Source of the DNA: a phage
DNA length: 1,192 nucleotides
Strand: one strand, 5' to 3'
Sequence record: OR846218.1
Shown here in pieces: positions 1-1,192 of the stretch. The notes under the pieces were generated by a model, which worked only from the letters and a program-made list of their open reading frames with translations, did no database searches and was not told where the DNA came from. Numbering within the stretch: position 1 is the first letter of the stretch; each line of letters starts with the position of its first letter. A program made the translations under genes and the position numbers.

Positions 1-77
1 AAATCTCCCGGAATAAGATTACACATCTTAGCTACAATATGAACTAACGTAGCATATGATGCAATATTAAATGGAAG
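1..77 (-). CDS. td: thymidylate synthase, exon 2 (5' portion only; CDS continues past window start)
   Basis: Minus-strand codons from 77 downward read CTT CCA TTT AAT ATT GCA TCA TAT GCT ACG TTA GTT CAT ATT GTA GCT AAG ATG TGT AAT CTT ATT CCG GGA GAT = LPFNIASYATLVHIVAKMCNLIPGD. This matches the conserved thymidylate synthase segment (E. coli ThyA ...LGLPFNIASYALLVHMMAQ...). The frame is continuous with exon 1 once 78..1093 is removed. No ORF-track entry because the fragment is short and lacks a start. Confidence 0.86.
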
Positions 78-224
78 CACTATGTTCAGATAAGGTCGTT
101 AATCTTACCCCGGAATTATATCCAGCTGCATGTCACCATGCAGATCAGACTATATCTCCAACTTGTTAAAGCAAGTTGTCTATCGTTTCGAGTCACTTGA
201 CCCTACTCCCCAAAGGGATAGTCG
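78..224 (-). ncRNA. 3' ribozyme segment of the group I intron (P6 3' strands, P7-P9 region, terminal G)
   Basis: Minus strand CGACTATCCCTTTGGGGAGTAGGGTCAAGTGACTCGAAACGATAGACAACTTGCTTTAACAAGTTGGAGATATAGTCTGATCTGCATGGTGACATGCAGCTGGATATAATTCCGGGGTAAGATTAACGACCTTATCTGAACATAGTG. It contains a 7-bp hairpin CAACTTG/CAAGTTG (159..178) and a 7-bp hairpin CTGCATG/CATGCAG with a GUGA tetraloop (126..143). It ends in G at position 78 immediately before exon 2. Confidence 0.8.
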
Positions 225-962
225 TTAGGCATTTATGTAGAACCAATTCCATTTATCAGATTTTACACGATAAGTAACTAATCCAGACGAAATTTTAAAA
301 TGTCTAGCTGCATCTGCTGCACAATCAAAAATAACCCCATCACATGAAATCTTTTTAATATTACTAGGCTTTTTACCTTTCATCTTTTCTGATATTTTAG
401 ATTTAGTTATGTCTGAATGCTTATGATTAAAGAATGAATTATTTTCACCTGAACGATTTCTGCATTTACTACAAGTATAAGCAGAAGTTTGTATGCGAAC
501 ACCGCACTTACAAAACTTATGGGTTTCTGGATTCCAACGCCCGTTTTTACTTCCGGGTTTACTGTAAAGAGCTTTCCGACCATCAGGTCCAAGTTTAAGC
601 ATCTTAGCTTTAACAGTTTCAGAACGTTTCTTAATAATTTCTTCTTTTAATGGATGCGTAGAACATGTATCACCAAACGTTGCATCAGCAATATTGTATC
701 CATTAATTTTAGAATTAAGCTCTTTAATCCAAAAATTTTCTCGTTCAATAATCAAATCTTTCTCATATGGAATTTCTTCCAAAATAGAACATTCAAACAC
801 ATTACCATGTTTGTTAAAAGACCTCTGAAGCTTTATAGAAGAATGGCATCCTTTTTCTAAATCTTTAAAATGCCTCTTCCATCTCTTTTCAAAATCTTTA
901 GCACTTCCTACATATACTTTATTGTTTAAAGTATTTTTAATCTGATAAATTCCGCTTTTCAT
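225..962 (-). CDS. I-TevI: Intron-encoded GIY-YIG homing endonuclease I-TevI (245 aa)
   Basis: ORF-track entry 225..962 (-), ATG at 962..960, TAA at 227..225. Protein starts MKSGIYQIKNTLNNKVYVGS (GIY at 4-6, YVG at 17-19) and has R27, E75 and N90 in the expected catalytic positions. A Cys4 zinc finger lies at C151/C153/C164/C167 (FCKCGVRIQTSAYTCSKC), followed by a C-terminal DNA-binding region. As far as I can recall, this matches phage T4 I-TevI over its full length. A GAGG Shine-Dalgarno lies 5 nt upstream of the ATG. Confidence 0.97.
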   Translation of the reverse strand: MKSGIYQIKNTLNNKVYVGSAKDFEKRWKRHFKDLEKGCHSSIKLQRSFNKHGNVFECSILEEIPYEKDLIIERENFWIKELNSKINGYNIADATFGDTCSTHPLKEEIIKKRSETVKAKMLKLGPDGRKALYSKPGSKNGRWNPETHKFCKCGVRIQTSAYTCSKCRNRSGENNSFFNHKHSDITKSKISEKMKGKKPSNIKKISCDGVIFDCAADAARHFKISSGLVTYRVKSDKWNWFYINA

Positions 963-990
963 AAATACCTCTTTAAATATAGAAGTATTT
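963..990 (-). promoter_or_regulatory. I-TevI translation-initiation region: Shine-Dalgarno (GAGG, 971..968) sequestered in a 10-bp hairpin
   Basis: Minus strand 990..963 is AAATACTTCT ATATTTAA AGAGGTATTT, followed by ATG. The two arms pair over 10 bp (9 Watson-Crick plus one U.G) around an 8-nt loop, burying the SD. This agrees with the published model in which I-TevI is translated only from late transcripts that start inside the intron and lack the 5' arm. Confidence 0.55.
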
Positions 991-1000
991 ATTAAAGGGC
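984..1000 (-). promoter_or_regulatory. T4 late-promoter-like element (AATAAATA, 993..986) and overlapping I-TevI operator-like sequence
   Basis: Minus strand 1000..984 is GCCCTTTAATAAATACT. AATAAATA is one mismatch from the T4 late promoter consensus TATAAATA. A start about 6-8 nt downstream would fall inside the hairpin, removing its 5' arm. The same stretch (CCCTTTAATA) resembles the exon-2 I-TevI binding sequence (CCATTTAATA, 74..65), as expected for the published autorepressor operator. Confidence 0.4.
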
Positions 1001-1093
1001 AGTCCTACAATTTAGCACGGGATTGTCTACTAGAGAGGTTCCCCGTTTAGATAGATTACAAGTATAAGTCACCTTATACTCAGGCCTCAATTA

Positions 1094-1192
1094 ACCCAAG
1101 AAAACATCTACTGATCGTTGATACCACTGCAAATCCAAATAGCCATTACGCACATTAAACTGATAGAACATATGACAAGGCGGTAATGCCAT
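1094..1192 (-). CDS. td: thymidylate synthase, exon 1 (3' portion only; CDS continues past window end)
   Basis: Minus strand from 1192 reads 33 in-frame codons: [37 protein letters not shown] holds the thymidylate synthase active-site cysteine (codon TGT at 1177..1175), and the segment aligns with E. coli ThyA DMALAPCHAFFQFYV...LYQRSCDVFLG. The exon ends at a codon boundary at 1094 and is followed immediately by intron TAA. Confidence 0.9.

Follow-up and report, generated by a model that had tools for sequence, protein, structure and literature searches.

The window (the whole stretch of phage DNA analysed, positions 1 to 1192) is filled completely by a single minus-strand unit, in which the gene td is split by a group I intron, predicted to be self-splicing, and the open reading frame (ORF) for I-TevI is nested within that intron. 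All features described below lie on the minus strand. An earlier note, made from the sequence alone, had proposed this order of exon, ribozyme, ORF, ribozyme, and exon, and the coordinates of the nested unit were all borne out. Both its anatomy and its homology to known genes are demonstrated in the window.

The 3' fragment of td exon 1 (1192..1094; 33 aa) ends in TTC TTG GGT and encodes the PPCH active-site cysteine motif, and the 5' fragment of td exon 2 (77..1; LPFNIASYATLVHIVAKMCNLIPGD) begins with CTT CCA TTT AAT ATT GCA TCA TAT. Translation of the spliced exons gave ...RSVDVFLG|LPFNIASYATLVHIVAKMCNLIPGD, a thymidylate synthase reading that continues over the junction. The joined 58-aa product matched profile positions 141-199 of Pfam Thymidylat_synt (PF00303) with 85.5 bits (cut-off 24.3; E 4e-24), in agreement with the thymidylate synthase homology expected beforehand, and all 58 residues are identical to those of the T4 enzyme. 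In the closest annotated genome td has frd and nrdA on either side, and T4 likewise has the order frd-td-nrdA. For annotation, td is one spliced gene here; many deposited records show two 'thymidylate synthase' CDSs instead.

Between the exons lies the intron (1093..78), assigned to group I on its match to the Rfam group I model (RF00028), on pairing, and on covariation, and carrying the extra helices P7.1 and P7.2. Its length is exactly 1016 nt and its removal restores FLG|LPFNIASY, both as the earlier note had claimed. The intron begins with TAATTGAGGCC, so that nucleotides 1-3 (window 1093..1091) form an in-frame UAA stop, and it ends in CATAGTG, with the terminal G at window 78.

The window contains 17 ORFs that encode 20 aa or more. 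Only one of them is long: the I-TevI ORF (962..225; 245 aa and a stop codon), identified by Pfam domains, T4 identity, and PDB matches. The encoded protein is identical to T4 I-TevI at 245 of 245 positions and has the domain order N-terminal GIY-YIG nuclease, linker with zinc finger, and DNA-binding domain at the C terminus. The predicted kinship with GIY-YIG endonucleases held, as Pfam GIY-YIG (PF01541) matched with 66.8 bits (cut-off 22.6); I-TevI_ZnF (PF22635) and I-TevI_DNA-bd (PF20987) matched with 73.4 and 110.5 bits, respectively (cut-off 27 for both). The GIY-YIG residues G4-I5-Y6, Y17-V18-G19, R27, E75, and N90 are present, as are the zinc-finger cysteines C151, C153, C164, and C167, and the protein matches solved I-TevI structures of the catalytic domain (1MK0 and 1LN0) and of the linker and DNA-binding region (1I3J and 1T2T).

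Fold and conservation of the ribozyme

Alignment to Rfam model positions 1-135, together with pairing, placed the 5' half of the ribozyme core at 1079..1015. It contains the P2 hairpin (1079..1062), the 5' strand of P3 (1055..1050), P4 (1045..1041 with 1022..1018), P5 (1036..1026), and the 5' strand of P6 (1016..1015), whose 3' strand is the GC at 230..229. P6a pairs UGUAG (1009..1005) with CUACA (240..236) and has the ORF in its loop. The 3' half (223..89; model positions 131-253, 33.5 bits) begins with the 5' strand of P7 (223..219), followed by P7.1 (218..207; UCCC with GGGA), P7.2 (203..190; GGGUC with GACUC), the 3' strand of P3 (184..179), P8 (178..159), J8/7 with the 3' strand of P7 (158..148), J7/9 (147..143), P9 (142..127), P9.1 (125..110), and P9.2 (109..89). 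Having P7.1 and P7.2 between P7 and the 3' strand of P3 is characteristic of the phage T4 intron subgroup. P6a and P6 have their 3' strands (240..229) within the final six codons of the ORF, an overlap of about 20 nt between ribozyme and coding sequence; the span of 78..224 previously given for the 3' part of the ribozyme therefore starts too late. The same overlap has been described for T4 (PMC2988022).

Searched as a whole against RF00028, the window scored 42.5 bits (E 3e-9). The expected match to the group I model was thus found, at a score under the curated cut-off of 50 because a 738-nt ORF is inserted in the P6a loop. When the halves were searched separately, 1103..955 matched model positions 1-135 with 14.8 bits and 236..126 matched positions 131-253 with 33.5 bits, a sum of about 48. 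Copies of this intron that naturally lack the ORF scored 72.7-73.8 bits, and the three shortest ORF-less td introns all exceed the curated threshold. In covariance-model scans, group I introns that bear ORFs may consequently drop below the curated Rfam threshold despite an intact ribozyme. Matches to snoR66 and other weak Rfam matches were dismissed as chance (E 0.32 to 7, far under their cut-offs).

For helices P1-P10 of the td-type fold, 75 base pairs were assigned, and every one of them forms in the window. In an alignment of 11 td introns, 98.8% of cells were paired, compared with 29-45% in slid controls, and compensatory double changes occurred in 10 pairs, compared with 2.9 in shuffles (none of the 500 reached the observed number). 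Support from covariation came from P7.2, P8, P9.2, and P10, including three doubly compensated P7.2 pairs in PspYZU05 (CAUCC with GGGUG). Helices P3, P4, P5, P6, and P7 show no variation among these 11 introns and are hence silent, and P1 varies on one side only. The fold and its covariation, like the gene anatomy, are demonstrated in the window.

At the 5' splice site, P1 (1099..1080) pairs the exon sequence UUGGGU (1099..1094) with the internal guide GCCUGA (1085..1080) at six of six positions. All 11 td introns have P1 fully paired (6/6) and share the U.G wobble at the splice site (1094 with 1085); three P1 pairs vary one-sidedly with pairing kept (UUAGGU with GCCUAA, GCCUAG, or GCCUGG). 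For P10, exon 2 CUU (77..75) can form three of three pairs with the guide GAG (1088..1086), and the third pair is variously G-U, U-A, A-U, or U-G in 8 of the 11 td introns compared. Guanosine-dependent self-splicing is documented for T4 td in the literature. If the window intron behaves as its family does, its RNA would fold into the P1-P10 ribozyme, exogenous guanosine would attack the 5' splice site, which the U.G pair marks in P1, and the freed exon 1 would then attack after the terminal G, yielding joined exons with an intact thymidylate synthase frame. Ribosomes reading into unspliced RNA would be halted by the UAA at intron nt 1-3.

Sequences for I-TevI expression and homing

Textbooks have covered this biology since the 1980s, from self-splicing and homing by I-TevI to autorepression and late translation under hairpin control. 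For the window, we infer catalysis, regulation, and homing from published T4 work. The late-promoter-like octamer AATAAATA (993..986) agrees at seven of eight positions with the T4 late-promoter consensus, TATAAATA, and lies within the 5' arm of a hairpin (992..961) that would sequester the ribosome-binding site. The hairpin pairs AUAAAUACUUCU (992..981) with AGAGGUAUUUAU (972..961) over 12 bp, as part of a -13.0 kcal/mol fold, and covers the Shine-Dalgarno sequence GAGG (971..968) as well as bases 1 and 2 of the I-TevI start codon. Overlapping the octamer is an operator-like sequence, TAGGACTGCCCTTTAATAAA (1007..988), which resembles the unit's own homing site, TGGGT|CTTCCATTTAATATT, at 14 of 20 positions. 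In the window taken singly, this likeness is within chance, since 46 of 500 shuffles reach it. However, the likeness recurs in the same register with 13-15/20 identity in nine td intron sequences from eight phages, and this recurrence, together with the published T4 experiments, led us to retain the site as a candidate operator.

The hairpin, octamer, and operator-like site are positioned as in the T4 literature, where the role of the late promoter, the function of the operator, and the hiding of the ribosome-binding site by the hairpin in read-through transcripts have been described (PMC2988022). If the T4 scheme applies, I-TevI would be translated late, from the late promoter inside the hairpin, and in longer read-through transcripts the hairpin would hide the ribosome-binding site; I-TevI would also repress its own synthesis by binding the homing-site-like operator that overlaps the promoter. 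Sigma-70 promoter-like sites in the window numbered 3, below the chance expectation of 5.2. The single 'terminator' called on the plus strand is simply the P8 hairpin in reverse complement.

Within exon 1, CAACG (1120..1116) is the predicted I-TevI cleavage motif (5'-CA^AC^G-3'), located at -27..-23 from the intron insertion site; motif and distance follow published descriptions (PMC5009752, PMC2988022), as does the definition of the motif as CNNNG (PMC5009752). Position -22 (window 1115), directly after CAACG, is A in the window and C in T4 (CGA versus CGC, both Arg). By analogy with T4, I-TevI would bind an intron-less td allele around its insertion site during mixed infection and make a double-strand break in it at CAACG, 23/25 nt upstream, after which repair off the intron-containing copy would carry over the intron together with flanking exon sequence.

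Source of the allele and the G at intron nucleotide 1014

The full-length element was found in 197 phage records, and the best matches were Tequatrovirus genomes one mismatch away, as expected from the previous proposal of a T4-like source. The td introns of Yersinia phage PYPS2T, fPS-90, ESCO58, a15, FL33, and other Tequatrovirus phages are identical to the window over 1192 nt except at window 80. The element can thus be assigned to Tequatrovirus, an assignment whose value is for annotation only.

We consider it virtually certain that the window holds a T4-type td group I intron carrying I-TevI that comes from a close relative of T4 rather than from T4 itself. The description 'classic T4 td homing intron' is right as to intron type and I-TevI; the allele is that of a T4 relative, with nine substitutions and one 1-nt indel relative to the T4 RefSeq (NC_000866). 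T4 td (M12742; NC_000866) shares with the window the host gene, the insertion site, the I-TevI protein, the arrangement of hairpin, late promoter, and operator, and, compared over the ORF-less core, the same P1-P10 helices. In favor of an origin from T4, as a laboratory strain or variant, the intron of the original 1986 T4 sequence M12742 is also 1016 nt long and differs from the window at only 3 of 1016 positions, and the I-TevI protein is identical. Yet the 176 exon nucleotides hold six synonymous differences from both T4 records, including the one at -22 beside the cleavage motif and, within the region bound by I-TevI, those at +3 and +6. All six are common to PYPS2T (exon haplotype CGA / CTTCCA / GCA / CCGGGA), whose exons are identical to the window at 176 of 176 positions, and at least 14 non-T4 phage records among the matches listed are one mismatch away. 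The intron has diverged from T4 significantly less than the exons have (Fisher p = 0.0006-0.001), a pattern that would be expected if the intron was shared across phage lineages. A T4 origin is accordingly highly improbable. Further differences from T4 include A instead of C in J7/9 (window 145), one synonymous change in the ORF (window 831), and one extra T in the RefSeq intron, which is therefore 1017 nt long (GGACTTGCCC).

We also weighed an engineered origin, in which the window would belong to a construct: a cloned td fragment, for example, or a td-intron marker of the kind used in group II intron retargeting vectors. Derivatives of the td intron are common in vectors, and one phage annotation cites 'intron of plasmid pMTL007C-E2'. 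However, the intron is flanked on both sides by natural td exons whose haplotype is the same as in wild phages. Both the complete I-TevI ORF and the regulatory region are undamaged, whereas td-intron marker constructs typically use ORF-deleted introns. The window is also free of vector sequence, and a search of complete E. coli genomes and the plasmids of those assemblies found no match, which likewise led us to reject an E. coli chromosome or such a plasmid as its source. With this evidence, we regard an engineered origin as extremely improbable, and the reading as a T4 relative's natural intron stands.

The td intron with I-TevI is an already known and ordinary element, and the earlier judgment that it is not novel is correct: the same allele occurs in Tequatrovirus phages, and only the G at window 80 is without precedent in the collections searched. 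This base (intron nt 1014) lies two nucleotides upstream of the terminal G (CAUAGUG), and A occupies its position in all records fetched and aligned, including those of the PYPS2T group, which for practical purposes carry the same allele. No perfect match was present among the full-length phage matches listed. Exact-pattern scans yielded no copies with G and three with A in metagenome contigs, neither the G form nor the A-form control in viral contigs, a collection that is therefore uninformative on this base, and neither form in genome contigs. The segment holding nt 1014 is otherwise invariant across the 11 td introns. The G could reflect either genuine variation or an error in sequencing.

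Its private nature, the metagenome counts, and its position 2 nt from the splice site in an otherwise invariant segment would suit a decaying copy, in which the A-to-G change impairs the choice of 3' splice site or provides a cryptic terminal G, compromising td expression. Against this, the helices are all intact, as are the terminal G and P10 (CUU with GAG), and the ORF is undamaged; were G1014 to serve as the terminal G, the mRNA would retain UG and P10 would be weakened, so that the normal site should stay preferred; and a sequencing or assembly error explains a single private base equally well. Folding of the two alleles gave no informative difference, as the 1.1 kcal/mol between the A and G forms of a mini-intron carries no weight because the minimum-energy fold misses the native pseudoknotted core. 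Decay of the copy is thus very unlikely. It is also very unlikely that G1014 is a real natural variant altering the choice or efficiency of the 3' splice site, for example through a competing terminal G or through changed pairing of the 3' tail; were it so, the base would adjust how much thymidylate synthase the phage expresses. Our literature search returned no usable defined P9.0 pairing for td, and a tentative pairing between A-U of J7/9 and the dinucleotide preceding the terminal G was dropped, having shown no covariation in the td intron alignment.

Related introns

Natural ORF-less td introns occupy the same insertion site in HMD-9 (254 nt), PD112 (262 nt), C2-3 (320 nt), e11/2 (445 nt), and Klebsiella phage EI (315 nt). 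In these the endonuclease gene is deleted or truncated, whereas the ORF in the window is full and intact. The shared ribozyme core is 97-98% identical to the window in the ORF-less introns of Escherichia phages, and the Klebsiella phage EI copy is about 80% identical. In HMD-9, P6a and the ORF are replaced by another short hairpin, GUUC-UUUU-GAAC.

The same kind of nesting and a related ribozyme core occur in the T4 nrdD (sunY)/I-TevII and nrdB/I-TevIII introns, and blastn similarity of the window to introns located in nrdD was about 72-75%. The two T4 introns follow the same logic of promoter, hairpin, and proposed operator (PMC2988022). They differ from the window in host gene and insertion site and in their endonucleases, I-TevIII being an HNH protein and I-TevII a distinct GIY-YIG protein. 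Outside phages, the GIY-YIG isoschizomer I-BmoI, from the group I intron of Bacillus mojavensis thyA, binds the homologous thymidylate synthase site and cuts there (PMC5009752); it differs from the I-TevI of the window in its bacterial host, its cleavage motif (GCCCG, with only G5 critical), and its diverged protein sequence.

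The td gene, its intron and the I-TevI reading frame

The window carries the td intron/I-TevI system of T4-like phages, which is already known in all respects examined, as the earlier note had held in calling it not novel. On the minus strand, a 99-nt coding fragment of td exon 1 (1192..1094) ends TTC TTG GGT and is directly followed by TAATTGAGGCC, and a 77-nt fragment of exon 2 (77..1) begins CTT CCA TTT AAT ATT GCA TCA TAT. The intron between them (1093..78) is exactly 1016 nt long, with G as its last base. When the exons were joined, the exon-2 side of the splice junction translated as LPFNIASYATLVHIVAKMCNLIPGD, and the product aligned to positions 141-199 of Pfam Thymidylat_synt at 85.5 bits (cut-off 24.3), placing both exons in thymidylate synthase.

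The sole long ORF in six frames (962..225, minus strand) encodes 245 amino acids and belongs to the I-TevI family. GIY-YIG, I-TevI zinc finger and I-TevI DNA-binding domains were all found well over the Pfam cut-offs, and the protein matched solved structures of the I-TevI catalytic (1MK0, 1LN0) and DNA-binding (1I3J, 1T2T) domains. It is identical to T4 I-TevI (245/245 aa, with one synonymous nucleotide change) and keeps all catalytic residues (G4-I5-Y6, Y17-V18-G19, R27, E75, N90) and zinc ligands (C151, C153, C164, C167). Because the exon ends, the 1016-nt span, the thymidylate synthase match and the sole long ORF agree, the exon, intron and ORF coordinates proposed from sequence alone proved exact to the base by minus-strand reading, ORF scan and alignments, and the two protein assignments made with them stand.

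The main use of the finding is correct annotation. Many of the deposited phage genomes compared (L003, L004-L007, L009-L011) show td as two 'thymidylate synthase' CDSs rather than a spliced gene, and some label one td CDS 'hypothetical protein'. The annotated exon-2 CDS of PspYZU05 begins at an ATG made by the last three intron bases. The td CDS of Klebsiella phage EI carries the note 'with intron of plasmid pMTL007C-E2'; its annotators evidently recognised the intron via a cloning vector carrying a td-intron-derived marker.

Ribozyme structure and covariation

Rfam Intron_gpI matched the whole window at E 3e-9 and 42.5 bits (curated cut-off 50), with the model's 5' half mis-threaded into the ORF. 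The untranslated parts, scored separately, each fell on the proper model half (1103..955 on positions 1-135, 14.8 bits; 236..126 on positions 131-253, 33.5 bits). The score falls short because the 738-nt ORF occupies a loop: copies of the same intron without it, in HMD-9 (254 nt), PD112 (262 nt) and C2-3 (320 nt), reached 72.7-73.8 bits, and the Escherichia phage ORF-less copies are 97-98% identical to the window over shared parts. ORF-bearing group I introns can thus fall below covariance-model thresholds.

Helices P1 to P10 were assigned from the Rfam alignments and complementarity, and all 75 assigned pairs are able to form in the window (75/75). Assignment to the group I family is supported by the P1 helix, which has a U.G wobble, by P10 and the terminal G, and by the core helices, P7.1/P7.2 and the covariation. 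The nested arrangement described earlier holds, but the 3' ribozyme part does not restart at 224, since the 3' strands of P6a (CUACA, 240..236, minus strand) and P6 (GC, 230..229, minus strand) lie within the last six I-TevI codons. The same overlap occurs in T4, where it has been tied to a need for delayed I-TevI translation that spares splicing (review of T4 mobile elements, PMC2988022).

Covariation was assessed on alignment A1 of 11 td introns (the window, T4, five ORF-less copies, two Mosigvirus, one Gelderlandvirus and one Jiangsuvirus), in which ORF loops were swapped for a five-base linker. Standard pairs filled 98.8% of cells for a structure partly derived from the window sequence itself, and control structures shifted by 1-3 columns gave just 29-45% pairing. 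Both sides had changed in 10 pairs, versus 2.9 in column shuffles (0/500 reached 10), with the double changes located in P7.2, P8, P9.2 and P10. Three P1 pairs vary one-sidedly yet remain paired in all 11 introns, the splice-site U.G wobble being retained; P3, P4, P5, P6 and P7 are invariant, and covariation is neutral for these helices. The third P10 pair joins the guide-sequence G at window 1088 to the third base of exon 2 at window 75 (A1 columns 16 and 280). It is G-U in the window, HMD-9 and C2-3, A-U in Melville, U-G in SQ17 and U-A in LF82-4, Klebsiella EI and PspYZU05, and is mismatched in T4, e11/2 and PD112. Given these four standard forms and an exon base at a synonymous third-codon position, intron and exon appear to have adapted to each other at this pair.

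Relation to T4 and other td introns

Megablast against 50,697 phage records gave 658 with a match, 197 of them spanning at least 80% of the window. The best matches, with one mismatch, were Tequatrovirus (Yersinia phages PYPS2T and fPS-90; Escherichia phages ESCO58, a15, a48, FL33 and others). In the closest annotated genome td is flanked by frd and nrdA, like the frd-td-nrdA order of T4. An engineered construct is an unlikely source.

The window is also unlikely to be T4 itself. The intron length of 1016 nt given in the earlier note agrees with the original 1986 T4 entry M12742, whereas the T4 RefSeq intron has 1017 nt; the 1-nt indel is a T missing from GGACT(T)GCCC, also absent from M12742. 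Nine substitutions further separate the window from RefSeq: six synonymous exon changes (1115, 75, 72, 60, 9 and 6) and those at 831 (synonymous, in the ORF), 145 (J7/9) and 80. On these differences the source is a T4 relative, not T4. Identity to T4 is 96.6% in the exons but 99.6-99.7% in the intron (Fisher p about 0.001), and two Mosigvirus phages differ in the same direction (exons about 80%, intron about 90%). The lesser divergence of the intron is consistent with recent lateral spread, its movement between phages postdating the divergence of the gene around it.

The best matches differ from the window only at position 80 (intron nt 1014), which is G here and precedes the intron's terminal G by two nt. 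This base is A in T4, M12742, PYPS2T, fFiEco06, the other aligned td introns and three metagenome contigs; the metagenome contigs scanned held 0 copies of the G form and 3 of the A form. In scans of the viral contig collection the A-form control was also unmatched, so absence of the G form there carries no weight. No documented pairing involving nt 1014 was found in the literature. Either a private variant or an error in sequencing may account for the G. That the window's td intron is a decaying copy is unlikely, and no splicing loss is expected from the G, because every helix is intact, as are P10 and the terminal G.

The I-TevI gene is all or mostly lost from the td introns of HMD-9 (L004 301-554), PD112 (L005 301-562), C2-3 (L006 301-620) and Klebsiella phage EI (L012 201-515, 315 nt), and e11/2 (L007 301-745, 445 nt) keeps a 55-aa N-terminal fragment. 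The ribozyme is retained in all five, with P6a replaced by a new GUUC-UUUU-GAAC hairpin in HMD-9, and the three shortest exceed the Rfam threshold. The losses look independent because deletion end-points differ among the five introns.

In many unrelated phages (of Salmonella, Pseudomonas, Pectobacterium, Vibrio, Campylobacter, Staphylococcus and Bacillus), unannotated stretches resemble the 3' ribozyme core (P7-P3'-P8-P7'-P9) at 70-85% nucleotide similarity; they lie inside nrdD and the genes for DNA polymerase and terminase, among others. Many of these stretches are probably unannotated group I introns.

Regulatory elements and homing target

A 12-bp hairpin (992..981 with 972..961, minus strand) takes in the GAGG Shine-Dalgarno sequence and positions 1 and 2 of the start codon. 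Its 5' arm holds a late-promoter-like octamer, AATAAATA (993..986, minus strand), matching 7/8 bases of the T4 late-promoter consensus, TATAAATA. The operator-like site TAGGACTGCCCTTTAATAAA (1007..988, minus strand) matches the phage's own reconstituted homing site at 14/20, a likeness that alone is within chance (46/500 shuffles reach 14/20); the site recurs in the same register, at 13-15/20 identity, in nine td intron sequences from eight phages. Around window 1002, T4 RefSeq (L002) reads GGACTTGCCC, and M12742 (L016), the window and all other td introns examined are one base shorter; the extra T falls within the operator-like site.

In T4, late transcripts begin within the hairpin, so that the ribosome-binding site is exposed, and I-TevI autorepresses its promoter by binding the operator, a poor cleavage substrate for the enzyme since it lacks a suitably spaced CNNNG motif (PMC2988022). 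Carried over from the T4 work, the hairpin, late promoter and operator would function likewise in the window.

A consensus scan gave one plus-strand 'terminator-like' match (159..178), which is the reverse complement of the P8 hairpin plus a T-rich run; it was rejected as an artefact of ribozyme structure.

By sequence match, the predicted I-TevI cleavage motif is CAACG at 1120..1116 (minus strand; -27..-23 from the insertion site), a position consistent with the published site 5'-CA^AC^G-3' and its 23/25-nt distance (PMC5009752; PMC2988022).
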